Position numbers and translations under genes: made by a program. 64,000 bases of DNA from a virus. Lineage: Duplodnaviria > Caudoviricetes. Under the pieces are notes generated by a model. The model saw nothing but the letters and a program-made list of their open reading frames with translations. It did not search any database and was not told the origin of the DNA. Of the stretch, positions 20,220-33,026 are shown in pieces. The DNA lies in IMG/VR virus record IMGVR_UViG_3300022602_000026; one strand, written 5' to 3'. Each line of letters starts with the position of its first letter. Position 1 is the stretch's first letter.

Positions 20220-20310
20220 GGAAGGCCAATCCAAATGGCGATGGAACCGGTCTTGAAAACCGTCGAGCGTTAATAACGCCTTTAGAGTTCGACTCTCTAG
20301 CCTTCCGCCA
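20220..20310 (+). tRNA. tRNA-Ser(TGA)
   Basis: Cloverleaf, loop CTTGAAA, long variable arm, CCA. Confidence 0.9.
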
Positions 20311-20331
20311 AAATCTCACCGCTTCCGCCAA

Positions 20332-20601
20332 TGTTGTATTTGTGCAACACCGCAGTTGTTCAGAAATGACAACTCAGTTATAATAGATACAAGTTAAGCA
20401 ATTAACTGAAGTTAAGCAATTAACAAGTGTTGTATAACAACAACATCAAATTTGCAAAGAAATGATGTCTAAGTTATAATAGATACATGTTAAGAAATTA
20501 ACTAAGTTTAATTGATTAGCAAGTGTGTAGTGTAAATGCAACATCAAATTTGCAAAGAAATGATAAAGCAGTTACAATACATATATGTTAAGAAATTAAC
20601 A
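20332..20601 (+). promoter_or_regulatory. Three tandem operator-promoter units
   Basis: TGTTG(or TGTAG)-N8-CAACA, 6 nt, -35 TTGTTC/TTGCAA, 17 nt, TATAAT/TACAAT, then GTTAAGMAATTAAC; units start 20332, 20428, 20526. Confidence 0.8.
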
Positions 20602-20677
20602 GTAACAAATGATTGAGTTAGTTACAGAGTTCATTAAAAAATTATTTAGGTAGTGCTAGTTTTGCTTGGCAACAAGC

Positions 20678-20938
20678 ACTACTTTAAAACACATTTGAGG
20701 TTACCTACACCGTTAGGTTCTCTAGGAGAGGAGCAAGGGTGCCGACTCACGCAATCCTAGGGCAACATGAAACAGAGCAGTAATGCTTGGCGATAGCGGC
20801 GGACAGGTAGGCAGTAATGACGAACTGAAGTCTGTGCAGACGGTGCACCGGGATGTTATCGAGCGTAAACCCTTATTAGGTAACGAACGGGTTGTGAGAC
20901 GACAGAGGGGAGTTCCTCAAGTGTTTTTTAAAGTAGTT
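20678..20938 (+). ncRNA. ~260-nt structured RNA, unclassified
   Basis: 23-bp closing stem (one mismatch, one G-U), GUAA-capped hairpin, several internal complementary blocks, no ORF. Confidence 0.7.
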
Positions 20939-21008
20939 GAAACTCTAGATTAAATCCACTGGTAATAAAGAGAGAAGTGAGTGGTACTCTCCAACTACTA
21001 ACAATTTT

Positions 21009-21086
21009 GGTCTCATAGTATAGTTGGCCTAATATGCCTGCCTGTCACGCAGGAGATCACGGGTTCGAATCCCGTTGAGACCGCCA
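21009..21086 (+). tRNA. tRNA-Asp(GTC)
   Basis: Cloverleaf, loop CTGTCAC, CCA. Confidence 0.95.
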
Positions 21087-21156
21087 AAGTTTTCTGGCAT
21101 TTTAACAAGGCGAGCCGTCAATGCAGAGTCTAGTTAAATGTAAGTCCAATCTAATT

Positions 21157-21232
21157 GCATCGTTCTTCTAGAGGCCAAGGAAAACCGCCTTTCACGCGGT
21201 CAACACCGGTTCGAATCCGGTACGATGTACCA
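21157..21232 (+). tRNA. tRNA-Glu(TTC)
   Basis: Cloverleaf, loop CTTTCAC, CCA. Confidence 0.9.
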
Positions 21233-21238
21233 AAATTT

Positions 21239-21327
21239 GGGGGCTAATCCACACGGGAGACTGTAAATCTCTTGCCATAATATGTGTGGTGGCTGGCAGT
21301 TAGGTTCGATTCCTTTAGTCCCCACCA
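21239..21327 (+). tRNA. Atypical tRNA-Tyr(GTA)-like RNA lacking a D-arm
   Basis: Acceptor GGGGGCT/AGTCCCC + ACCA, loop CTGTAAA, T-loop TTCGATT, only 10 nt in D-arm position. Confidence 0.65.
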
Positions 21328-21338
21328 TTTGTAGTTGT

Positions 21339-21492
21339 TATTGATAAGTGTTTGAGATGAACATGGGGTATCGTGGACTGATCATCCGCTATGCGGGCCT
21401 AACTGGCGTGGAACAGGTCCTGACATAACCCGCCATACGCTGTTGCCGGAAACGATCCGACGCATAAATTGGCACTCAAGCACTTTTCAATA
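21339..21492 (+). ncRNA. Stem-closed structured RNA abutting tRNA-Arg
   Basis: 18-bp closing stem, inner tatgcg/cgcata and tggcg/cgcca helices. Confidence 0.6.
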
Positions 21493-21567
21493 GTCGCTAT
21501 AGTATAATGGATAATACGCCGTGCTACGAACGCGGTGATTGTGGTTCGATTCCATATAGCGGCACCA
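21493..21567 (+). tRNA. tRNA-Arg(ACG)
   Basis: Loop CTACGAA, CCA. Confidence 0.95.
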
Positions 21568-21573
21568 AACAAT

Positions 21574-21648
21574 GGAGTTGTTAGTTTAGTGGTAAAACCG
21601 CGGGTTGTGATTCCGCTATCACGAGTTCGATTCTCGTACTTCTCCCCA
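21574..21648 (+). tRNA. tRNA-His(GTG)
   Basis: Loop TTGTGAT, G-1, CCA. Confidence 0.9.
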
Positions 21649-21662
21649 GTGTAAAAGTTTTT

Positions 21663-21738
21663 GGGGGTATAGCTCATTTGGTAGAGCAGGACCTTTGCAA
21701 GGTCAAGGCGGCGGGTTCGAATCCTGTTACCTCCACCA
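21663..21738 (+). tRNA. tRNA-Ala(TGC)
   Basis: G3:U70, loop TTTGCAA. Confidence 0.95.
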
Positions 21739-21744
21739 GAATAC

Positions 21745-21836
21745 GGAGACTTGGATGAGTGGTTTAAATCGGCACCCTGCTAAGGTGTTGTATATAGTAA
21801 TATGTACCGAGAGTTCGAATCTCTCAGTCTCCGCCA
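21745..21836 (+). tRNA. tRNA-Ser(GCT)
   Basis: Loop CTGCTAA, long variable arm. Confidence 0.95.
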
Positions 21837-21839
21837 AAT

Positions 21840-21868
21840 TTGACAGTAAATGATGTTACTGTTACAAT
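21840..21868 (+). promoter_or_regulatory. Sigma70 promoter
   Basis: TTGACA-17-TACAAT. Confidence 0.8.
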
Positions 21869-21879
21869 AAGAAATCAGT

Positions 21880-21953
21880 TGGGGATTAGTTAAATGGTAT
21901 AACAGTGGATTTTGATTCCATCGTCGAAAGTTCGATTCTTTCATCCCCTGCCA
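21880..21953 (+). tRNA. tRNA-Gln(TTG)
   Basis: Loop TTTTGAT, CCA. Confidence 0.9.
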
Positions 21954-22100
21954 AAGTTTGTTAGTTATTAAAAAGGAAGTTAACATGAAAGACACTGCTA
22001 AACACTAGTGTCAATCTTGATCCCGTATTGGTCAGGGTTGGCACATTAAAGAACTCTTTAATATAGTATTAAGACATTAAAGAAACTTTTAATACACCAA

Positions 22101-22176
22101 CCCTCTGTGGCGCAATTGGTAGCGCAACGGACTCTTAATCCGCTGGTTGGCAGTTCAAATCTGCCCGGGGGGACCA
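22101..22176 (+). tRNA. tRNA-Lys(CTT)
   Basis: Loop CTCTTAA, CCA. Confidence 0.9.
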
Positions 22177-22179
22177 TAT

Positions 22180-22255
22180 GGGACGTTAGCTCAGTAGGTA
22201 GAGCAAGAAACTTTTAATTTCGAGGTCATGTGTTCGAATCACATACGTCCTACCA
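22180..22255 (+). tRNA. tRNA-Lys(TTT)
   Basis: Loop CTTTTAA, CCA. Confidence 0.95.
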
Positions 22256-22867
22256 TATAAAAACACATTAAGTAAGTCCCGGGCAAGATTCGTTTAATAG
22301 GCATTAGTGTGTTTCTATATGGTAAGTAATGATACAAGAGGGAGTAATTACCCTTCAAGTATGACCTAGAAGCGAGTGGACGAACGTGACTGTGGGCCAC
22401 TAAGGTAGTCAACATTACAATCCATATAAAAACACATTCTTGTGGGTAAGTGACTTGGTTAACGCCGATATCGACCGCCCGTTTGTAGTGTGTTTCTATA
22501 TGGTAAGGGCAAGGTGTGCTGTTGGTATCTGGCTTAGACCTCCGGACTGTCACTAGAATCATTACCGCTCTACTGCTTGGTCGGCAGTACCATATAAAAA
22601 CACATTAGAGTAGCGACTATTGCTGGAGGCGGTAACACGTAATTAGTGTGTTTTTATATGGTATATCAGTTTTTAGTAAGTCATACACGGGACTGCTACC
22701 TACGGGATAGATATCGAGGCTCGGAATCTCGGATACTAATTACAGACTCAATGACGGATGCATACGGCATTGTTGATACGCCATATAAAAACACATTATC
22801 TAACCTGTAGTGCGGTCACAGGACATCGTAAGGTGTGGTAGCCGTGTTAGTGTGTTTCTATATGGTA
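22251..22867 (+). repeat. Array of four conserved inverted-repeat stems with variable loops and variable CCA-ended spacers
   Basis: CCATATAAAAACACATT at 22253, 22422, 22590, 22781; AGTGTGTTTYTATATGG at 22306, 22487, 22645, 22849. Confidence 0.95.
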
Positions 22868-22939
22868 ATATAGCATAGTGGCTAATGCAGTTGCTTCATA
22901 CGCAACCTATCGTTGGTTCGAGTCCAACTATTACCACCA
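22864..22939 (+). tRNA. tRNA(CAT), Met or Ile2
   Basis: Acceptor GGTAATA/TATTACC, loop TTCATAC. Confidence 0.85.
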
Positions 22940-22941
22940 AG

Positions 22942-23048
22942 TTTCGGGATAGACGGCGCGATTGAGTCCCTTGACGGTCTTAGTGCTACAGGCTGTAGCA
23001 TGACACACCAGTAGACCATAAGGTAGCATAAACTCTTGCGTTCGAGAC
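22942..23048 (+). ncRNA. Possible long irregular hairpin RNA
   Basis: Nested pairs gcgcga/ttgcgt, gagt/actc, ggtct/agacc, tgctaca/tgtagca. Confidence 0.45.
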
Positions 23049-23053
23049 AAAGA

Positions 23054-23239
23054 CTAATCTTCTACACCGGGAAGTGGCGGTGTAGTCCTCTCTAGATCAG
23101 TTTCCCGAAAATCTTTATGTTGCGGGGGTTGTGCGTCTGGCACAAACTCCGCTGGAAGACACGTAAACATCTTTTGTTTATAAGGTCGATTTGAGTGTAC
23201 TTTGTACAACATTTGAAATTCTGTGTAGATGTCTTCCAT
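23054..23239 (-). CDS. 61-aa antisense late micro-protein
   Basis: TATAAATA (23244-51, minus strand) 4 nt before ATG; MEDIYTEFQMLYKV... Confidence 0.5.
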   Translation of the reverse strand: MEDIYTEFQMLYKVHSNRPYKQKMFTCLPAEFVPDAQPPQHKDFRETDLERTTPPLPGVED

Positions 23240-23251
23240 ACAGTATTTATA

Positions 23252-23328
23252 GCCCCGATAGCTCAGTTGGTAGTAGCACCGTCTTGATAAGGCGTAGGTC
23301 CCTGGTTCGAGTCCAGGTCGAGGCACCA
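23252..23328 (+). tRNA. tRNA-Ile(GAT)
   Basis: Loop TTGATAA, CCA. Confidence 0.95.
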
Positions 23329-23342
23329 AATTAAAAATTTAT

Positions 23343-23425
23343 TCCACGGGAGCCGCCGGGTGTGGCAGCGGACTGTTAATCCGTGTCGAAAGACTAGCTA
23401 GGTTCGAGCCCTAGCCGTGGAGCCA
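23343..23425 (+). tRNA. tRNA-Asn(GTT), long variable arm
   Basis: Loop CTGTTAA, GTC-GAAA-GAC arm. Confidence 0.9.
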
Positions 23426-23440
23426 ATCATAAATAACTAT

Positions 23441-24046
23441 ATGTATAATTGTATAGTTTGTGAAAAATCTTTTGTCAGCATTATGTCCTTAACCGGTCAT
23501 AAAAGAATGCACGGTCAATCTAATGGCAAATCTAAAAAGATATTGTGTTCGTGTTTAATTACACGTAAGGTAATGCCGCATCAATATTTAGAAAAATATC
23601 AAGACAGTTTAATGGGTTGTAAGCAATGTAAAAAATTGTTTAAACCAACTGCACAAAGAACTACTTTTTGCTCTCAATCTTGTTCGGCAACATATAACAA
23701 TACAGTTTACATAAAACGTAAGAAAAAAGAAAAACTGCCAAAGATTATTAGAGAGAAAAAAGTTTACTCAGAAGCCGAGAAAAAGGCTGCAAATGTTTCA
23801 GCAGTACAAGCCTACAGAGCTCGAAAATATAGTGCGACACTACCAGATACAAATCGCAAACTTATTAATGAGATTTACAAAATGTGCCCAAAAGGTTATG
23901 AAGTAGATCATATTATTGCGTTAAGCGAAGGTGGTCCGCACCATCAAGACAATTTACAGTATCTTCCTGCTATAGAAAATAGACGGAAGAACCGAACACA
24001 AAATTACGACAAAAGTCTTGCTATCAAATGGCAAGATGTGTTATAA
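23441..24046 (+). CDS. HNH endonuclease with Zn-finger-like N-terminus
   Basis: CxxC pairs; YEVDHIIALSEGGPHHQDNLQYL; start reset from 23417 to 23441. Confidence 0.85.
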   Translation: MYNCIVCEKSFVSIMSLTGHKRMHGQSNGKSKKILCSCLITRKVMPHQYLEKYQDSLMGCKQCKKLFKPTAQRTTFCSQSCSATYNNTVYIKRKKKEKLPKIIREKKVYSEAEKKAANVSAVQAYRARKYSATLPDTNRKLINEIYKMCPKGYEVDHIIALSEGGPHHQDNLQYLPAIENRRKNRTQNYDKSLAIKWQDVL

Positions 24047-24142
24047 TAAAAACAAATACAAGTCAGTTCCCGGATGACTCGAAAAATGCGGGCTGCTCAA
24101 TCGCCAACGGAGCGAGCGTAAGGTAACAGTTGGACAAATTTC

Positions 24143-24227
24143 GCCCCTTTGCGCCGAATGGGATGGCAACGGATTTGTAATCCGTCTTCGTAAGATAGAG
24201 AGTGTTCGATTCACTCAGGGGGCACCA
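24143..24227 (+). tRNA. tRNA-Thr(TGT), long variable region
   Basis: G1-C72/C2-G71, loop TTTGTAA, 14-nt variable region. Confidence 0.85.
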
Positions 24228-24234
24228 AACAACA

Positions 24235-24483
24235 ATGTGGACATACTTAGAAACTTTTTTATTAGTATTTGCAACCGACATACTTTATATCTATTATGTT
24301 AAAGCCGTAACAGATCATAAAATATGGCGTGCAACCTTTTGGAGTATGGTAGTTACATTTACTGCTAGTATAGCAGTGATCAACTACACCGAGAACCATT
24401 GGACACTGATATCAAGTTTACTGGGTGCCGGAGCCGGCACTTATATAGGTATGCGATTCATTAAAAAGAATAACGGAGTATAG
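24235..24483 (+). CDS. Small three-helix membrane protein
   Basis: 82 aa, hydrophobic, GAGAGTYIG; stop lies inside tRNA-Pro. Confidence 0.7.
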   Translation: MWTYLETFLLVFATDILYIYYVKAVTDHKIWRATFWSMVVTFTASIAVINYTENHWTLISSLLGAGAGTYIGMRFIKKNNGV

Positions 24484-24551
24484 CGCAGTCTGGCTAGCGC
24501 ATCTGCTTTGGGAGCAGAGGGTCCAAGGTTCGAATCCTTGTACTCCGACCA
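24474..24551 (+). tRNA. tRNA-Pro(TGG)
   Basis: Loop TTTGGGA, CCA. Confidence 0.95.
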
Positions 24552-24563
24552 ATTAAATATAGT

Positions 24564-25634
24564 ATGAAAAGAATAGTTTGGCCATTAAAGATTTATGGTG
24601 ACAAAGATTTATCGGGCAAAATTTGCACGATCCCTTTTAATACTGTAGCAATATCAATTGAAGGTGATGTTCGTATATGTATGTGTACTGATTGGATGCT
24701 ATCCACAGTTGGCAACATTTATGAAAATTCCTTACAAGATATTTTAGTTAATGCAAGATCCACAACAATAAGACAATCTATTGTTGATGGTAATTTTAGA
24801 TACTGTGACGAAACCAGATGCGGAGTATTGCTTAATTCAGACACAGGATTAATTACAGTAACGCAAGAAGATCAATTATTAAAAAATTTACTTGATCCTG
24901 CAAATTTTACAATACCATCTGAGATATGGATAAGTGGTGACATGACCTGTAACCTTTCTTGTCCATCTTGTAGAAAAAGCATAATTCGAGAAACAGAAGC
25001 ACAACAACGACAAAATCAAGAGCTATTAGATAATTTAGTTCAACATATTTTTCCTGGCTCCAGCGATAAAGAAATTACCTTGTACATGAGCGCAACTGCT
25101 GAAGTATTTGCTAGTTCACTGTTACTGGGTTTGTTGGAAAAATTGCCCATTGATCGATACCCTAACATTAGATTAAGTCTACAAACAAACGGGTTATTGG
25201 CCGAACGTAGATGGTCTAGGATCCAACATTTAGAAAAGAATATACATCGTATCACAGTTACCATAGATAGTTGTACCAAACAAAACTATGAACTATTGAG
25301 ACGAGGTGGTAAATTTGAAGATATGGAAAGTAGCTTAGAGTTTTTTTCAAAGAAAAAACGCGAGCTAGGGTTTCAGTATTATATTAGATCAGTAACGCAA
25401 CAAACAAATTGCAACGAGATCGAACAATTTTATGATTATTGCAAACAACACGACGCTGATCGAGTTGAATACTGTAAGTTGGCCAATTGGGGAACTTTCA
25501 CCGAGCAAGAATTTTTAGCACACGATGTGCTTGATAACGCACACCAACAGTACCAATCAACAATTGATACTTTTAATCGACTCAAAGAAAAATACAACGA
25601 TGTATTTTTTATAGGCTTCGCAAGTATGGCGTAA
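24564..25634 (+). CDS. Radical SAM protein with N-terminal SPASM-like domain
   Basis: TCNLSCPSC, LQTNG, ITVTIDS; stop lies inside tRNA-Leu. Confidence 0.9.
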   Translation: MKRIVWPLKIYGDKDLSGKICTIPFNTVAISIEGDVRICMCTDWMLSTVGNIYENSLQDILVNARSTTIRQSIVDGNFRYCDETRCGVLLNSDTGLITVTQEDQLLKNLLDPANFTIPSEIWISGDMTCNLSCPSCRKSIIRETEAQQRQNQELLDNLVQHIFPGSSDKEITLYMSATAEVFASSLLLGLLEKLPIDRYPNIRLSLQTNGLLAERRWSRIQHLEKNIHRITVTIDSCTKQNYELLRRGGKFEDMESSLEFFSKKKRELGFQYYIRSVTQQTNCNEIEQFYDYCKQHDADRVEYCKLANWGTFTEQEFLAHDVLDNAHQQYQSTIDTFNRLKEKYNDVFFIGFASMA

Positions 25635-25705
25635 TCGGTAGCCGCAGCAGACTTAAAATCTGCCGAGTTTGACTCGTCCCGGTTCGATTCCGGGTACTTG
25701 CACCA
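25620..25705 (+). tRNA. tRNA-Leu(TAA)
   Basis: Loop CTTAAAA, long variable arm. Confidence 0.95.
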
Positions 25706-25707
25706 AC

Positions 25708-25784
25708 ACCACTGTAGTCTAACTGAATAAGGCACCGCTCTTCTAAAGCGTACGATGTGAGTTTGAATCTCGCCAGTGGTACCA
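25708..25784 (+). tRNA. tRNA-Arg(TCT)
   Basis: Loop CTTCTAA, CCA. Confidence 0.9.
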
Positions 25785-25826
25785 TTTATCATAAATACTT
25801 CTATGTAAAGACTAGGAGTAGAAGTA

Positions 25827-26528
25827 ATGGATTATAAGAAAATATACGAAAATTTAATAGATCGTGCTAGAGATCGATGTTTAATAGATGGTGAATATTA
25901 TGAATCGCACCACATTGTTCCTAGATGTTTAGGTGGTAATGATAGTATTGATAATTTAGTAAATCTAACAGCTAGAGAACATTTTATAGCACATTTATGC
26001 CTAGTTAAGAATAATCCGGGTAATCATAAACTTGTGAAAGCGGCCGTTATGATGACTGTTAGTGGCACAGTTCATAATAGAATAGGGAATAGAGTTTATG
26101 AATGGTTAAGAAAAAAGCATTCAGTTGCAATGAGTATTTCACAATCCGGAAAAGGTAATAGCCAATTTGGATCTGTCTGGGTATTTAACGATATCTTAAA
26201 AGAAAATAAAAAAGTTAAAAAATCTGAATTATCTACGTTTATTGCCGCCGGGTGGCATGAAGGAAGAGTTTATGATTTTGATAGCGTATATCAAAATTGT
26301 GCAGTTTGTGGAAAAGACTTCAGAAACCATTTTAAGAAAAAGACTTGCAGTTACACATGTCAAGAAATCTTAAAAGGCAAATTTAAAAGTTTTGAAGGCA
26401 AAGAAGAAGAATTAAAAATGCATTATGCAAATACTAAGAGTATGAATAAAGCATTAAAGGCAATGGGATATCCTGGAGCAGTTAGCCATTATTATCAATG
26501 GGCTAAACGTATCCTAAAGCAAACATAA
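25827..26528 (+). CDS. HNH homing endonuclease
   Basis: YYESHHIVPRCLGGNDSIDNLVNLTAREHFIAHLCL. Confidence 0.9.
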   Translation: MDYKKIYENLIDRARDRCLIDGEYYESHHIVPRCLGGNDSIDNLVNLTAREHFIAHLCLVKNNPGNHKLVKAAVMMTVSGTVHNRIGNRVYEWLRKKHSVAMSISQSGKGNSQFGSVWVFNDILKENKKVKKSELSTFIAAGWHEGRVYDFDSVYQNCAVCGKDFRNHFKKKTCSYTCQEILKGKFKSFEGKEEELKMHYANTKSMNKALKAMGYPGAVSHYYQWAKRILKQT

Positions 26529-26531
26529 TTT

Positions 26532-26606
26532 GCGACTATAGCATAGCGGTAGTGCCGCGAACTCATAATTCGTACGGGGGTGGTTCGAATCCACCTGGTC
26601 GCACCA
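26532..26606 (+). tRNA. tRNA(CAT), elongator Met or Ile2
   Basis: Loop CTCATAA, CCA. Confidence 0.9.
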
Positions 26607-26611
26607 AATTT

Positions 26612-26687
26612 GCAACTTTAGCTGATGTGGTCATAGCGGTGGCGTGAAGAGCCATTGAACTAGGTTCGATTCCTAGAGGTTGCACCA
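26612..26687 (+). tRNA. tRNA-Phe(GAA)
   Basis: Loop GTGAAGA (unusual G32). Confidence 0.9.
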
Positions 26688-26691
26688 AATC

Positions 26692-26769
26692 GCCCCCGTG
26701 GACAAATTGGCAAAGTCATTTCTCTCAAAAGGAAAAGTTTTCTCCGTTCGACTCGGAGCGGGGGTACCA
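26692..26769 (+). tRNA. tRNA-Leu(CAA), short variable region
   Basis: Loop CTCAAAA, 6-nt variable region. Confidence 0.85.
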
Positions 26770-26771
26770 AG

Positions 26772-26845
26772 GCTCTTGTAGTTAAGTGGCATAACACAGT
26801 CTTGGTAAGACTGAATAGAAAGTTCGATTCTTTCCTAGAGCACCA
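26772..26845 (+). tRNA. tRNA-Thr(GGT)
   Basis: Loop TTGGTAA. Confidence 0.9.
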
Positions 26846-26846
26846 G

Positions 26847-26875
26847 TTGACAAATAAATAGAATGATAGTATAAT
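26847..26875 (+). promoter_or_regulatory. Consensus sigma70 promoter with nested TAAATA
   Basis: TTGACA-17-TATAAT. Confidence 0.85.
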
Positions 26876-26885
26876 AGATACTAAT

Positions 26886-26959
26886 GCGGGATTAGTTTAA
26901 TGGTAAAACAGAACCTTGCCAAGGTTCGGACAGGAGTTCGATTCTCCTATCCCGCTCCA
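26886..26959 (+). tRNA. tRNA-Gly(GCC)
   Basis: Loop TTGCCAA. Confidence 0.95.
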
Positions 26960-26966
26960 AGAGTTC

Positions 26967-27040
26967 GCCTCGGTAGTTTAATGGTAGAACGGCATCCTTA
27001 CACGGTGCATACGGGAGTTCGATTCTCCAACGAGGTACCA
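26967..27040 (+). tRNA. tRNA-Val(TAC)
   Basis: Loop CTTACAC. Confidence 0.9.
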
Positions 27041-27048
27041 AGAAAGAT

Positions 27049-27122
27049 GGGTCATTAGTATAATGGTAGTACAAGAGTCTCCAAAACTTTTAGCGGTGGT
27101 TCGATTCCATCATGACTCGCCA
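27049..27122 (+). tRNA. tRNA-Trp(CCA)
   Basis: Loop CTCCAAA. Confidence 0.9.
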
Positions 27123-27128
27123 AACAAT

Positions 27129-27206
27129 GTAAGGGTGGCAGAGTGGCCCAATGCAACGGATTGCAAATCCGTAAAACCGTCGGTTCAAATCCGACCCCTT
27201 ACTCCA
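27129..27206 (+). tRNA. tRNA-Cys(GCA)
   Basis: Loop TTGCAAA, U73. Confidence 0.95.
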
Positions 27207-27213
27207 ACAATTT

Positions 27214-27945
27214 ATGCACAATAGATCATTTAGACCCGAACAAGAAAAAAAATTGCGGGAAAATATTGGTCCCAGCGGAGTTGTAGAAAACTTTTTAACC
27301 CATGATGAATTCGAGTTGTGTAGAAAACTACATGCCGAAAACATAGACAAAATAAAAATGGGATTTGTGTTTAGGCAAGCAGCATTTGATTGGGAGTCCG
27401 AATACGGGGCCATGTTTAAATGGATACAGCCCAAGATTGATGCAATAGTTCCTGCTGAATGGGAATTGGATTTTATTGCTTTGCAGGATACTCCGGATCC
27501 TTGGAGGATACATATTGATCTTGCCTGGAACGCAGACAAGTTGCCGTATAAGGTATTGCTAGTTCCAGTAGATGTACTACCTGAATCAGGACCAGTAGAT
27601 CCCGTCAATTGGCCTGCGGTTTACACAATAATTTTTAATCAAAGAAACTTTTTATCAAATTGCAAGCCGTTGCCTCCGGGGGCTAGTTGGATACGATCCA
27701 TTGATGATCCCAGTGTTGAAAATCTTGAAACAGGGTTTTGTATAACTAGAGAATTTTGGCAACAGTATCTAACACATGTCGACTATGAAGCTTTAGAAGG
27801 ATTAACAGTAGAAACTTTGCTTCCTTGGAAACCAAAGTCTGTATTGTATTGGGATACTTCGGTATTGCACATAGCAGACAATTTTGTCAAGAATAAAGTT
27901 AAAACAAAGAAGTCAGTGATATTTTTTATACGACATAAACTATGA
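27214..27945 (+). CDS. Putative 2OG-Fe(II) oxygenase-fold protein
   Basis: WRIHID (HxD) plus distal LHIAD. Confidence 0.5.
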   Translation: MHNRSFRPEQEKKLRENIGPSGVVENFLTHDEFELCRKLHAENIDKIKMGFVFRQAAFDWESEYGAMFKWIQPKIDAIVPAEWELDFIALQDTPDPWRIHIDLAWNADKLPYKVLLVPVDVLPESGPVDPVNWPAVYTIIFNQRNFLSNCKPLPPGASWIRSIDDPSVENLETGFCITREFWQQYLTHVDYEALEGLTVETLLPWKPKSVLYWDTSVLHIADNFVKNKVKTKKSVIFFIRHKL

Positions 27946-28135
27946 GCATAATTAAAGATGCGAGAAAACTGCAATAGCCGGCGGCCCAACTGCTAGGGAA
28001 CCATTTGTGTCCCGGAGGCCATGTACCCGTTGGCAACAACGCTGGCGTACCTGTTGGCTACAGGATGAACACACTCCGGGAAGGGGACGACGATGTTGAA
28101 CCCCTTTAAACGTACAGCAGTATCTTTAATTATGC
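27946..28135 (+). ncRNA. Stem-closed structured RNA abutting tRNA-Arg
   Basis: Perfect 14-bp closing IR gcataattaaagat/atctttaattatgc; tcccggag/ctccggga; cgttg-GCAA-caacg; cctgt/acagg; agggg/cccct. Confidence 0.7.
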
Positions 28136-28212
28136 GGGTCCGTAGCTCAGCAGGATAGAGTACTGGTCTTCGAAACCAGCTGTCGGCGGTTCGAACCCGT
28201 CCGGACTCACCA
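28136..28212 (+). tRNA. tRNA-Arg(TCG)
   Basis: Loop CTTCGAA. Confidence 0.95.
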
Positions 28213-28232
28213 ATTACCAGATAAGTAACTTA

Positions 28233-28988
28233 ATGTTATCAATCATTATTGCAACCTTTAACGCACCTGACTTATTGAAGTTGGCCATTGACTCGGTGTT
28301 GCGACAAACTAGTCCCAATTGGGAAATCGTTGTCAGTCCCGATGACGGGCAAGACTATTCTCGTCTCAGGGACTTGGATAAAAGAATTCAAGTGGTTGAA
28401 TCCAATGCCATTGCTACAGGACCTGGGGCCGCTAGGAATAGAGCATTGGAGTATGTGAGGGGCACCGCAGTGGCCAGTCTGGATGACGATGACGAGTTGT
28501 CAATGACCTACGTAGAGGATGCGTTGACGGCCTTGGCCTCAACCCCTGTTGTAGTGTTTCCCACTCGTTATTCCGACATTCGTGTTATTGCACAACACCT
28601 AGACAGTATCAACATAGAACAATTTAGCCAACTGCTTGGCAGTTTGCATGTGGTAGCACGTAGAGAATGTTTTCCGCCTTGGCCCAATTGTTTTGCTGAA
28701 GATGTGATTCACACCTGCAAAGTAATTGAACAACAAGGCGGTAGTATTCCGGTCATTAACACCGCTGAATATATTTTAAATGTGCGTGATGCCAGTATGT
28801 GTGCAACTTATAAAAACATAGATGCCGAATACGCCGACATTATTTGCAACACTACTAGTACTGCAATGGCCAATCTATTTAGATACAGACAACACATTAA
28901 TCGTCTTTATCAAGGTAGCAGTTTAAATTATCATGCGTTTGTTGAACAGTTGACAACAAATGAAATAAACAGTATAATACATTTTTAG
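28233..28988 (+). CDS. Glycosyltransferase family 2
   Basis: MLSIIIATFN, GPGAARNRAL, LDDDD. Confidence 0.9.
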   Translation: MLSIIIATFNAPDLLKLAIDSVLRQTSPNWEIVVSPDDGQDYSRLRDLDKRIQVVESNAIATGPGAARNRALEYVRGTAVASLDDDDELSMTYVEDALTALASTPVVVFPTRYSDIRVIAQHLDSINIEQFSQLLGSLHVVARRECFPPWPNCFAEDVIHTCKVIEQQGGSIPVINTAEYILNVRDASMCATYKNIDAEYADIICNTTSTAMANLFRYRQHINRLYQGSSLNYHAFVEQLTTNEINSIIHF

Positions 28989-28994
28989 GAGGCA

Positions 28995-29585
28995 ATGATG
29001 CCAGCAACATTTTTGGTAAGTGACACACATTTTGGACATAGCGGTGTATGTCGTTTTACTCGTAATGACGGCATAACAAAATTGCGTCCATGGGACAATG
29101 CAGATGAGATGGATGAAGCTATGGTCCGGGCTTGGAACGAACGTGTCCGTCCCACAGACAAAGTTTACCATCTTGGGGATGTTGTGATTAATCGTAAAGC
29201 ACTCGCGATCATGCACAGACTTAACGGCGACAAGGTTTTGATTCGTGGTAATCACGATATCTTTAAAGACACCGACTACCGTGAACACTTTAGAGAACTT
29301 AGAGCCTATCACGTTATGAACGGCATGATCCTTAGTCACATACCGCTCCATCCTGAAAGTTTGGGCCGCTTTGGTACGAACATACACGGACATTTGCATG
29401 CCAATCGTGTTATGATAACAAAGCATAAAGGTGCTGCTCCTGAAGTTGATGTACGCTACCATTGTGTATGTGTGGAACAAACTCCGGACTTTGCACCTAT
29501 CTTGTTTGAAGACGTTAAAAAGCGTATCATAGAAGAAGGTGGCAGCATTGACTTTAAAAATAACGGCAATGGCCCTGCGATGTAA
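28995..29585 (+). CDS. Calcineurin-like metallophosphoesterase
   Basis: SDTHFGH, HLGDV, RGNHD, HGHLH. Confidence 0.92.
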   Translation: MMPATFLVSDTHFGHSGVCRFTRNDGITKLRPWDNADEMDEAMVRAWNERVRPTDKVYHLGDVVINRKALAIMHRLNGDKVLIRGNHDIFKDTDYREHFRELRAYHVMNGMILSHIPLHPESLGRFGTNIHGHLHANRVMITKHKGAAPEVDVRYHCVCVEQTPDFAPILFEDVKKRIIEEGGSIDFKNNGNGPAM

Positions 29586-29595
29586 ATAGTATAGT

Positions 29596-29679
29596 GCCCC
29601 GGTGGTGTAATGGTAGCCACGCTAGTCTTAGGAACTAGTGCCGCAATGCGTGTCGGTTCGAGTCCGACCTGGGGCACCA
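29596..29679 (+). tRNA. tRNA-Leu(TAG)
   Basis: Loop CTTAGGA, long variable arm. Confidence 0.95.
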
Positions 29680-29689
29680 AATAAAATAA

Positions 29690-31555
29690 ATGAAAAATAT
29701 ATACTTAATACAACCCAATGAGATGCAGGAGTTCCAAGGTAAAAAAATATTTTGGTTGCCCTACACCTCGGGGGTGTTGTGGGCCTATGCACTACAGTTT
29801 CCCGAAGTAAGCAATAATTATTGTTTACAGGATTTGATGTTCCATAGAGAAAAAATCAGTTCGGTGGTTGATCGCGTATTGCCCAATTCTATTTTTGCAT
29901 TCAGTTGTTATATATGGAATTGGGAATACAATAAAAAATTAGCACAAGCAATCAAAGAACGATATCCCGACTCGTATATTGTTTTCGGTGGGCCGCAGGT
30001 GAGTGACCGTCCATTGGAAACTGACTTTTTTAAAAAACACAAATACGTTGATACTATTGTACTAGGCGAAGGTGAAGAATCATTTACACGACTATTGATA
30101 GACTATGTTGATGGTAAAAAAACAAAGATATACAATAGTAAACGTTTAGAAAATGTCAACACTCCCAGTCCATACCAAGTTGGTGTATTTGATAAAATAA
30201 TTGCCGACAATCCCGAGTTCCACTGGAATGGAGTACTAGAAACAAATAGAGGATGTCCGTTTGCTTGTACCTTCTGTGACTGGGGAGGACTAACATACAG
30301 CAAAGTTAAACAACTGCCTATTGATCGTGTTGATCACGATATTGAATGGTTTGGTATAAATCAAATCGAATACATAGCTGTAGCCGATGCAAACTTTGGA
30401 ATTTTCAAAGATCGAGATTTAAAGATTGCTAAAAAGATCACAGACGTTAGATTAAAGTATGGATATCCGGCAAATTTAAATATCAACTTTAATAAAAATC
30501 AAACCTCGGACATAGTAAACATAGTAAAGGTACTTGCCGAAAGCGGACTTAACCGCGGATTAACTATTAGTTTTCAAAGTCTTGATGACGATGTACTAGA
30601 AGCTATCAAGCGCAAGAACATGGCCATTAGCAAAAGCGAAGAAATATTTCGACTGCTCGAAGAGTCCAATCTAACTCACTATTCGGAAGTTATTTGTCCT
30701 TTGCCTTTAGAAACATACGATACTTGGCGAGCCGGTTTAATCAAATTAATAACTGCCGGACAACATCAATGTATTGATGCTTTCTTTACTGCTGTATTAG
30801 AAAACAGTGAAATGAATCAACCCGAATATAGACGCAAATACGATATTAAGTCTATAGAACGAGAATACATATTCTTCTTTCACTTTGGCGCCGAAGACGT
30901 ATTAACCGAAGAAGCCACAGAAAAAATAAACTTAATTGTCTCGACCAGTACAATGAGTCTTGATGATCATATACGCAGTTGGATGTATACTTGGCTTATT
31001 ACAAATTTCCACATATATGGTTGGACACAGATCTATGCTAGATTTTTAAATGCACACAACATCAAGTATGATGTGTTCTACGATTGTCTCTTAGATGAAA
31101 TTGCAAATCAACGCATGGGATTTTTAAGCGAACAATATCTAGAAGTAAAACGCATGATAACATTGTTACTAACCGAAGGTAGTAACTTAAAGGATGTGGG
31201 ACTCAGTCCTGATGTAATTAGATTTAGTCAACGATATTTCCATCGTAATCGAAAATTGGTTGAGCAGTTGTTGGCCGACTATGTCAAAACTCAATTTGAT
31301 CCAGAGAACTTTGTTAATCTACATCGGTACCAAATCAATTTTGTATCTCACATGGATCAAGGCGAATCAAGACACGAGGTACTGGACCTGGGAATAAAGG
31401 ACACAATAACAAAAGGTGTGCCCTACCAAGAAAACCTAAAGGAATGCACAGTAGCACCAGTGGGAACTTATTCCAGCCAAGAAGAATTTTTAGCTAAAAC
31501 AATCATGCATAGAAGAAATGGTTTTGGCAAAAATCTAATACTTGACAAAGAATAA
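29690..31555 (+). CDS. Cobalamin-binding radical SAM protein
   Basis: FSCYIWN, VFGGPQ, GEGEE, ETNRGCPFACTFCDWG. Confidence 0.92.
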   Translation: MKNIYLIQPNEMQEFQGKKIFWLPYTSGVLWAYALQFPEVSNNYCLQDLMFHREKISSVVDRVLPNSIFAFSCYIWNWEYNKKLAQAIKERYPDSYIVFGGPQVSDRPLETDFFKKHKYVDTIVLGEGEESFTRLLIDYVDGKKTKIYNSKRLENVNTPSPYQVGVFDKIIADNPEFHWNGVLETNRGCPFACTFCDWGGLTYSKVKQLPIDRVDHDIEWFGINQIEYIAVADANFGIFKDRDLKIAKKITDVRLKYGYPANLNINFNKNQTSDIVNIVKVLAESGLNRGLTISFQSLDDDVLEAIKRKNMAISKSEEIFRLLEESNLTHYSEVICPLPLETYDTWRAGLIKLITAGQHQCIDAFFTAVLENSEMNQPEYRRKYDIKSIEREYIFFFHFGAEDVLTEEATEKINLIVSTSTMSLDDHIRSWMYTWLITNFHIYGWTQIYARFLNAHNIKYDVFYDCLLDEIANQRMGFLSEQYLEVKRMITLLLTEGSNLKDVGLSPDVIRFSQRYFHRNRKLVEQLLADYVKTQFDPENFVNLHRYQINFVSHMDQGESRHEVLDLGIKDTITKGVPYQENLKECTVAPVGTYSSQEEFLAKTIMHRRNGFGKNLILDKE

Positions 31556-31570
31556 CAAAGAGTATATAAT
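31542..31570 (+). promoter_or_regulatory. Consensus sigma70 promoter
   Basis: TTGACA-17-TATAAT. Confidence 0.85.
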
Positions 31571-31576
31571 AGCTAT

Positions 31577-31651
31577 TGCAGGGTGGAGAAGTGGCAACTC
31601 ACCGGGCTCATAACCCGGAGATCACAGGTTCGAATCCTGTCCCTGCTACCA
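31577..31651 (+). tRNA. Initiator tRNA-fMet(CAT)
   Basis: 1:72 mismatch, GGG/CCC anticodon stem, loop CTCATAA. Confidence 0.92.
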
Positions 31652-31662
31652 AATATAAAATT

Positions 31663-32718
31663 ATGAAACATAGAGTAGAACGTGGTATAGGAGTTTACAT
31701 TACACATACCTGTAATTTAAACTGCACTGACTGCAATACGTTTAATAATTTTTCTTTTTCAGGACATCAACGTTGGAGTGATTACCAAGCTCTATATACC
31801 GAATGGTCCAAGCGAATAGACACTTATACATTTTTTATAATTGGCGGCGAGCCAATGACCAATCCTGATTTTTTATCTTGGGTACATGGTATTGCTGGAC
31901 TATGGCCCGACTCTGAAATAAAAATAACAACCAACGGCACACAATTTAAACGTTGGCCCACACTGTATCAGGAATTGTTGCCGTATCGTGGACGAGTTAG
32001 ATTGTTTATCAGTGTACACAACGAAGACTCGATACAACACTATGTTGATATAGCACGAGAATTTTTACAAGGCGACATATCCGAATACACCGATCGTGCA
32101 TTTGACGAGTTTCATTGGCAACGCAGTTACAATCGCATTAGAGGCAGTGATTGGCCCGATTGTAACAGTATAGAAGAATACCAAAATCTTCCCGAGCACA
32201 TCAAACAAGAATGTGAACAAGTACATAACATAAAGATACAGGATTTTGTAGAACAAGCCGAAATTACTCCAGGCAGTCGAATTTTCATTGACTCTAATCA
32301 TGTTAGGCTATCGTTTTCGTTAAACGACAAGTTTGCCAGTTCGTCCGTTAGACTTGACAACAATCAATTATCGTTATACAATAGTGATCCCAACAAAGCA
32401 ATTTCGGCATGTTATTTAAAAGCCTGTCATCGTTTTTATAAAGGAAAATTATACAAGTGTCCGGTAGTACCAGTATTGCCGGACTTTGCGGAACAGTTTT
32501 CTTTACCGCTCAGTGACAGTGATCAAAAACTAATTAACTCTTACCGTGCCGGAGAAGCCGATTGGGACGACGTTCAATTAGCAGAATTGATCGATAACTT
32601 TGAAAAAGAAACAGTAATTGACCAATGCAAATTTTGTCCCGAACAGTTGAAAACAGTTACAATAAAATCGTCGGCTAAAAAGATCAAGATTCACAATACA
32701 ACACCAAGGAGACTTTAA
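31663..32718 (+). CDS. Radical SAM protein with inserted WPDC module
   Basis: HTCNLNCTDC, IGGEP, TTNG, GKLYKCP; start reset past the tRNA. Confidence 0.9.
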   Translation: MKHRVERGIGVYITHTCNLNCTDCNTFNNFSFSGHQRWSDYQALYTEWSKRIDTYTFFIIGGEPMTNPDFLSWVHGIAGLWPDSEIKITTNGTQFKRWPTLYQELLPYRGRVRLFISVHNEDSIQHYVDIAREFLQGDISEYTDRAFDEFHWQRSYNRIRGSDWPDCNSIEEYQNLPEHIKQECEQVHNIKIQDFVEQAEITPGSRIFIDSNHVRLSFSLNDKFASSSVRLDNNQLSLYNSDPNKAISACYLKACHRFYKGKLYKCPVVPVLPDFAEQFSLPLSDSDQKLINSYRAGEADWDDVQLAELIDNFEKETVIDQCKFCPEQLKTVTIKSSAKKIKIHNTTPRRL

Positions 32719-32942
32719 TGTCATATACAAGTAGAGGCACTTTTATCGATACCGAAAAATGTGTAGAAGCCGTAGGCGGAAACAGATTTAATTTAATCGT
32801 AATTGCCAGTATGCGAGCACGAGAAATTGCACAACAAAATCGTCACAGTCATCACCACGCACATTGGCATACTCCGGTTACTGCACTACTTGAAGTACAA
32901 AATGGTGAGTTAAATTACACCGACTTAAAACGTCTTAGATAA
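32718..32942 (+). CDS. rpoZ: RNA polymerase omega subunit homolog
   Basis: GNRFNLIVIASMRAREI...PVTALLEVQNG matches RpoZ pattern. Confidence 0.8.
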   Translation: MSYTSRGTFIDTEKCVEAVGGNRFNLIVIASMRAREIAQQNRHSHHHAHWHTPVTALLEVQNGELNYTDLKRLR

Positions 32943-32952
32943 GTAAAAATAT

Positions 32953-33026
32953 GCGAGGTTCGTATAGTGGTAATACCTTAGCCTTCCAAGCTAATGCTGA
33001 GAGTTCGATTCTCTTACCTCGCTCCA
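32953..33026 (+). tRNA. tRNA-Gly(TCC)
   Basis: Loop CTTCCAA. Confidence 0.95.

Follow-up and report, generated by a model that had tools for sequence, protein, structure and literature searches.

Since T4, the tRNA clusters of phages have been known to harbor small stable RNAs whose function is unexplained after fifty years. In polycistronic rRNA precursors, the sequences flanking a stable RNA pair into long leader–trailer helices, the RNase III stalks that bracket it. RNA C and RNA D of T4 come from the T4 tRNA region, and their roles are still unknown (PMC3014915, PMC9697503). GOLLD (RF01998) and ROOL (RF03087) are structured phage and prophage RNAs, also of unknown function, that often lie near tRNA islands (PMC12286853). 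The YrlA-type Y RNAs (RF02553) of bacteria and phages accompany tRNA-like sequence and have a long stem between the 5′ and 3′ ends that closes a structured module. The present study concerns a further element with such a closing stem, located at positions 27946-28135 of the tRNA array of a large lake phage. The window, the whole stretch of phage DNA that was analyzed, is 64 kb long. We put a probability of roughly 0.62 on the reading that this element encodes a lineage-restricted noncoding RNA of ~190 nt that would be co-transcribed with the phage tRNAs, be cut from their precursor and likely act in trans on the tRNA or translation machinery.

The resemblance to T4 is chiefly one of setting. 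The window phage carries a T4-type large terminase, a RecA/UvsX-like protein and a UvsW helicase, all T4-type genes, and a homing endonuclease gene lies within the tRNA cluster in both phages. The two T4 RNAs (rnaC and rnaD, or species 1 and 2, of 139 and 119 nt) are, like the element, small noncoding RNAs inside a phage tRNA cluster and are encoded on the tRNA strand; rnaD lies 1 nt from a tRNA-Arg, and the element too adjoins a tRNA-Arg. However, the T4 RNAs sit after tRNA-Arg, whereas the element precedes it, and their folds differ from that of the element, which has a long closing stem and lacks the T-arm-like GGUUCGAAUCC hairpin of rnaC. When the T4 tRNA region was searched with model R1, filters off, the best match was an unrelated short hairpin at 10.3 bits, and the element thus shows no homology to rnaC or rnaD in sequence or structure. 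By this comparison the element is best read as a positional analogue of RNA C and RNA D.

The other described RNAs are less close. The sequence-only reading had taken a known Rfam family as the result that would undo it. No Rfam 15 family matched the element itself at its gathering score or at E ≤ 10: across the whole window only tRNAs reached the gathering score, and in the 411-nt neighborhood 27850-28260 nothing was found on the element at E ≤ 10 save a match to YrlA at 13.8 bits. Identity with YrlA was rejected, since that family has a gathering score of 69 and the match derives from the D-arm of the neighboring, real tRNA-Arg; no TROVE/Ro60-type domain occurs among the 48 window ORFs scanned. 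GOLLD and ROOL, at 500-800 nt compared with 190 nt, exceed the element three- to fourfold in size and are each built on a conserved core of their own; neither matched the element in Rfam, and no sign of multimer formation was seen. Compared with the RNase III stalks of rRNA, the closing stem P1 has only 16 bp, and a tRNA junction sets one of its ends. The literature searched contained no description of an element of this kind.

The 29 tRNA genes of the window span positions 20220-33026, all on the + strand, and are interspersed with HNH homing endonuclease and radical-SAM genes and with genes for a family-2 glycosyltransferase and a phosphoesterase (Table 1). The promoter upstream of the element matches the σ70 consensus at 12 of 12 positions and heads a unit composed of tRNA-Gly, tRNA-Val, tRNA-Trp, tRNA-Cys, an ORF, the element and tRNA-Arg; no terminator-like site lies on the + strand between this promoter and the element. 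The glycosyltransferase has no relatives in IMG/VR. The phosphoesterase is recovered in ~8,000 proteins at E ≤ 1e-20, the best 120 of which are mostly ~80% identical or more, and in at least 597 IMG/VR stretches, with >76% identity in hundreds of IMG/VR contigs and in thousands of proteins. It is kept inside the otherwise heavily rearranged tRNA arrays of phages of up to 367 kb, a conservation that points to a function linked with the metabolism of tRNAs or RNA ends.

Table 1. The element, its parts and neighboring features of the tRNA array, in window coordinates.
Feature	Position	Strand	Remarks
Structured RNA gene (the element)	27946-28135	+	190 nt here, 182-191 nt in relatives
P1, 5′ strand (AU-rich 16-bp closing stem)	27946-27961 (element positions 1-16)	+	pairs with 28120-28135
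P1, 3′ strand	28120-28135	+	last base is position -1 of tRNA-Arg
5′ domain	27962-28009 (positions 17-64)	+	unchanged up to position 57
P2a, predicted hairpin	27969-27972 / 27981-27984	+	never varies
P2b, predicted hairpin	27985-27987 / 27996-27998	+	never varies
P3 domain	28010-28081	+	8-bp helix 28010-28017 / 28074-28081 around P3a and P3b
P3a, bulged hairpin	~28026-28045	+	GCAA loop 28033-28036
P3b, hairpin	28050-28054 / 28060-28064	+	loop UGGCU 28055-28059
P4, hairpin (AGGGG/CCCCU and inner 4-bp stem)	28082-28105	+	nearly invariant
J4/1, junction UUAAACGUACAGCA	28106-28119	+	conserved; single-stranded in the model
σ70-type promoter (TTGACA, 17 nt, TATAAT)	26847-26875	+	12/12 consensus matches
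tRNA-Cys(GCA)	27129-27206	+	upstream neighbor of the element in all relatives
243-aa ORF, phage hypothetical protein	27214-27945	+	TGA 27943-27945 abuts P1
tRNA-Arg(UCG)	28136-28212	+	ARAGORN and Rfam; +1 abuts the element
Calcineurin-like phosphoesterase (phrog_547)	28995-29585	+	within the tRNA array
Stem-closed module	21339-21492	+	18-nt closing stem, MFE -51.9, z -2.1
Four hairpins with the same 20-bp stem, TACCATATAAAAACACATTA / TAGTGTGTTTCTATATGGTA	22251-22867	+	loops differ, 32-48 nt
260-nt GC-rich RNA	20678-20937	+	closed by 23-nt arms

A GC-rich, multi-hairpin RNA with a perfect 14-bp closing stem had been proposed from the window sequence, and each of the features named in that proposal occurs where it was placed. 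The two arms of the closing stem (27946-27959 and 28122-28135) form a perfect inverted repeat, and in the fold the stem is lengthened to 16 bp, its 14 Watson–Crick pairs being followed by a G-U and a C-G pair; P1 has the sequence GCATAATTAAAGATGC. Beyond P1 come two small 5′ hairpins, then P3, which encloses P3a and P3b, and finally P4. The previously described 8-bp helix tcccggag/ctccggga forms the base of P3 and contains both the GCAA-tetraloop hairpin and the cctgt/acagg helix attributed to it, while agggg (28082-28086) and cccct (28101-28105) pair immediately after it as the outer stem of P4. GC content is 0.51 over the element and ~0.5-0.57 in 100-nt windows, compared with 0.31-0.45 in the flanks. 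The minimum free energy of -66.9 kcal/mol lies well below that of dinucleotide shuffles (-51.6 ± 4.3; z -3.5), and 1 of 200 shuffles folds as well as the element. Taken as a single sequence, the reverse strand folds about equally well, and the strand therefore had to be settled from relatives.

The nearest record to the window is a 33.6-kb IMG/VR fragment. Relatives of the element were retrieved with a 21-nt pattern from the 5′ domain. The pattern matched metagenome contigs in 11 stretches, one of which and the IMG/VR fragment are the same record; a contig with the element carries the name of a Trout Bog hypolimnion sample. These yielded six further distinct full-length variants of 182-191 nt on 10 metagenome contigs, all of which keep the fold. 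Together with that of the window, the seven distinct variants align across their full length and make up one shallow clade with a mean column identity of 92%. Of the 47 pairs retained by RNAalifold, 7 show compensatory changes. Standard pairs occupy 99.7% of the pair cells, a share that falls to 37-50% once the partners are shifted by 1-3 columns, and both sides have changed in 15 cells, compared with 6.4 ± 1.7 in shuffles, a value reached by 0 of 500 shuffles. These changes include four P3 pairs altered on both sides and, in P3b, two pairs altered on both sides and one on one side. P2a, P2b, P4 and most of P1 are invariant or nearly so and are neither supported nor contradicted by covariation; pair 2/189 of P1 shifts from C-G through U-G to U-A across the variants, and the variation in P4 is a single G-C to G-U change. 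On the opposite strand, 29 G-U cells would turn into A-C mismatches. The G-U pairs fit only the + strand, which places the RNA on that strand, like the tRNAs. The relatives thereby back the proposed multi-hairpin RNA as a + strand fold and, by this comparative evidence, the element is a genuine and evolutionarily conserved noncoding RNA gene whose product folds.

Constraint is distributed unevenly along this RNA. Among the seven variants, P1 and the 5′ domain are 99% identical and the 3′ domain 97% identical, whereas the middle (columns 58-137) has a mean identity of 74%. Third codon positions of the neighboring phosphoesterase are 72-84% identical between the window and each relative; the middle domain drifts at a similar rate and yet stays paired. 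The retrieving pattern itself set 21 of the invariant columns, all in the 5′ domain; the other ~90 invariant columns were not set by it. P3a is 8 nt shorter in three variants. This indel, together with equal invariance at all codon positions, excludes the element as a coding sequence. A 12-codon mini-ORF (27958-27996) was rejected as coding, having no ribosome-binding site and three equally invariant codon positions, and mimicry of an anticodon loop by CUGCAAU in the 5′ domain was rejected for want of a flanking stem. Several contigs (L001/L004/L013, L008 and L014) end inside the element or ≤35 nt after it, which probably reflects assembly breakage at the strain-variable P3 domain next to a conserved tRNA.

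Two candidate contacts can be drawn within the fold. The UGGC core of the P3b loop is invariant while the P3b stem covaries, and the predicted P2a loop (AAUAGCCG, with AGCC(G) at 27976-27980) contains its complement, AGCC; in the model, AGCC of P2a and GGCU of P3b therefore represent a candidate kissing contact. GCAG(U) at 28117-28121, which runs from the end of J4/1 into the P1 3′ strand, could pair with the two ACUGC motifs that the 5′ domain contains, with a duplex energy of -7.9 kcal/mol; this pairing, too, is a candidate.

Within the sequence collections searched, the element is confined to a narrow group of phages. Comparison with 50,697 phage records by blastn returned tRNA and chance 26-mers only. 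In IMG/VR, the only copy that exact-pattern scans recovered is a truncated one (G001, IMGVR_UViG_3300025598_000104), on a contig that ends inside the element, and pattern scans of 185,579 prokaryote genomes found none. With model R1, nothing beyond noise was obtained from the more distant phage fragment L005, from L017 or from 80 IMG/VR loci around the conserved phosphoesterase. The same held for five records of related phages, which measure 156-367 kb and include three with an estimated completeness of at least 90%, where the single match of 13.7 bits (L099) is AT-rich coding sequence. The gap after tRNA-Cys in L019 and the gap before tRNA-Arg in L051 were considered as element sites and rejected, each holding an ORF instead. 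When the window was searched for complementary targets, a single 12-mer emerged, no better than chance and lying on the nontranscribed side of an HNH gene, and no partner protein or target for the RNA was found.

The element had also been described as filling the entire gap between a stop codon and position +1 of tRNA-Arg(TCG). Both ends of that description are accurate for the window, but the upstream one is a local accident. The ORF between tRNA-Cys and the element is present only in the window genome and is absent there in L001 and L006-L016; in the relatives, the element lies 5-17 nt after tRNA-Cys(GCA) and ends 0-1 nt before +1 of tRNA-Arg(UCG). On this comparison, the flush junction with tRNA-Arg +1, and not the fit to the stop codon, is the conserved feature. 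The ORF has no Pfam or PHROG match, and its protein look-alikes are viral hypothetical clusters. Following it led to L005, which encodes a relative with 42% identity elsewhere in its tRNA array and carries other modules, not the element; the ORF may be a mobile gene of tRNA arrays. Because the stop codon of the ORF directly adjoins P1, the stem would be opened by a ribosome that terminates there. The tRNA on the other side is also distinctive. The tRNA-Arg(UCG) next to the element shares just 53-71% identity with its counterparts in related phages without the element, which have G73 where it has discriminator A73, and it is 82% identical to an enterobacterial tRNA-Arg. It may be a separate acquisition that came with the element, and with such a distinct tRNA type attached, element and tRNA may form one lineage-specific unit.

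The intimate association with one tRNA is also what would be expected if the element were a cis-acting leader of tRNA-Arg(UCG), an inert folded block that would shield the tRNA from whichever ORF or tRNA lies upstream and would set the timing of RNase P cleavage or gate it, the released piece being degraded. Both the conserved junction of 0-1 nt and the distinct tRNA type that travels with the element fit this proposal. Structure in the proximal leader is known to alter the rate of RNase P (PMC10731613). Nevertheless, ~100 nt of loops and junctions are almost totally invariant, far beyond the needs of an insulating clamp. Moreover, relatives have tRNA-Arg(UCG) 3-11 nt after another tRNA without such a leader, and the other tRNAs of the window lack such leaders as well. 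We therefore consider an inert leader unlikely, and favor a noncoding RNA that is released from the tRNA precursor and acts in trans.

How such an RNA would be made can be outlined from its position. It would be transcribed with the phage tRNAs from the consensus promoter as part of a polycistronic precursor, and RNase P cleavage at +1 of tRNA-Arg(UCG) would then generate its 3′ end at 28135. RNase P separates tRNAs spaced by as little as 2 nt in polycistronic precursors (PMC10731613), and it is this ability to cut at close spacing, together with the flush docking to tRNA-Arg, that leads to a processing model in which the 3′ end is made by RNase P and the RNA is protected by P1. It counts against this model that RNase P can be slowed where the 5′ leader is fully paired beside the cleavage site (PMC10731613). 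At the other end, 3′ maturation of the upstream tRNA-Cys or, in the window genome, decay of the mRNA would leave a short 5′ tail. The 16-bp P1 would seal both ends against exonucleases, and the RNA should therefore accumulate like a tRNA. Within the mature RNA, the P3 domain would provide a sequence-free scaffold, and the invariant P1, 5′ domain, P4 and J4/1 would be the likely functional surface, perhaps organized by the kissing contact between the P2a (AGCC) and P3b (GGCU) loops. The likeliest task of the mature RNA would be to bind in trans to part of the tRNA or translation machinery, either a protein or an RNA.

A more specific form of action in trans can be imagined, although we regard it as doubtful. 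The RNA may be a tertiary-folded effector, and no mere by-product of processing, whose invariant 5′ and 3′ domains, held together by the P2a-P3b kissing loop, bind and sequester some factor that the host or the phage uses in tRNA metabolism; candidate targets would be a tRNA-targeting defense nuclease, a modification enzyme or RNase P itself. If this were true, the phage would possess a countermeasure made, cut and stabilized by the very tRNA pathway that it protects, and the other stem-closed modules of such arrays would constitute a toolbox of similar decoys.

Chemistry or sensing by the RNA itself is very improbable. A compact multi-helix core with invariant junctions and a candidate loop–loop contact, placed exactly at a processing site, would suit an unrecognized ribozyme that cleaves itself to trim the precursor, or a domain that releases the tRNA under the control of a bound ligand, but no ribozyme or riboswitch model of Rfam 15 matches at E ≤ 10, none of the conserved motifs of known classes was recognized, and the distribution is too narrow to argue from. 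Least credible of all is a DNA-level feature such as a miniature inverted-repeat element, recombination site or endonuclease target, which the perfect 14-bp terminal inverted repeat, the comparable folding of both strands as single sequences and the homing endonuclease genes of the array might evoke, given that each contig has one copy at a constant place with no other copy in the 64 kb, that the internal helices carry compensatory changes and that the G-U pairs work only on the transcribed strand.

The favored noncoding RNA is not the only stem-closed structure in the array. The stem-closed modules of phage tRNA arrays have an AU-rich closing stem of 16-23 bp and a GC-rich insert and are docked to a tRNA end, and the element shares this plan, with its closing stem and structured insert docked to a tRNA end. 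The module at 21339-21492 is the most similar in placement, since its last base abuts +1 of tRNA-Arg(ACG) at 21493; its core, GGUAUCGUG ... CGGGCCUAACUG.GCG.GGAACAGGUCCUGACAUAAC, is conserved in L005 (1512-1663), there 7 nt before tRNA-Cys. The element and this module both end at a tRNA +1, so that flush docking to the tRNA 5′ end looks like a design rule of these arrays. The four hairpins at 22251-22867 are separated by GC-rich spacers, and a similar stalk occurs in L005 at 1425-1509. The 260-nt RNA lies behind three tandem 96-nt promoter-like repeats (20332-20621) and has a homologous core in L005 at 700-900, upstream of tRNA-Asp. However, P1 of the element lacks the AAAACACA-type stalk core of the other modules, of CCATATAAAAACACATTA type in the window genome, and the interior of the element is unrelated to theirs. 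Its distribution is also much narrower (10 metagenome contigs and 0 of 80 related loci).

Collectively, the covariation provides good support for the element as a new RNA family of a known kind, the small stable RNAs of phage tRNA clusters. To that kind it adds a clean, covariation-supported example with a precise anatomy and a simple processing model, in which the 3′ end would be the RNase P site of the next tRNA. Alone, the element is an orphan of narrow range. Together with the other stem-closed modules, however, it suggests that tRNA operons may serve as a general platform for the expression and processing of phage small RNAs.
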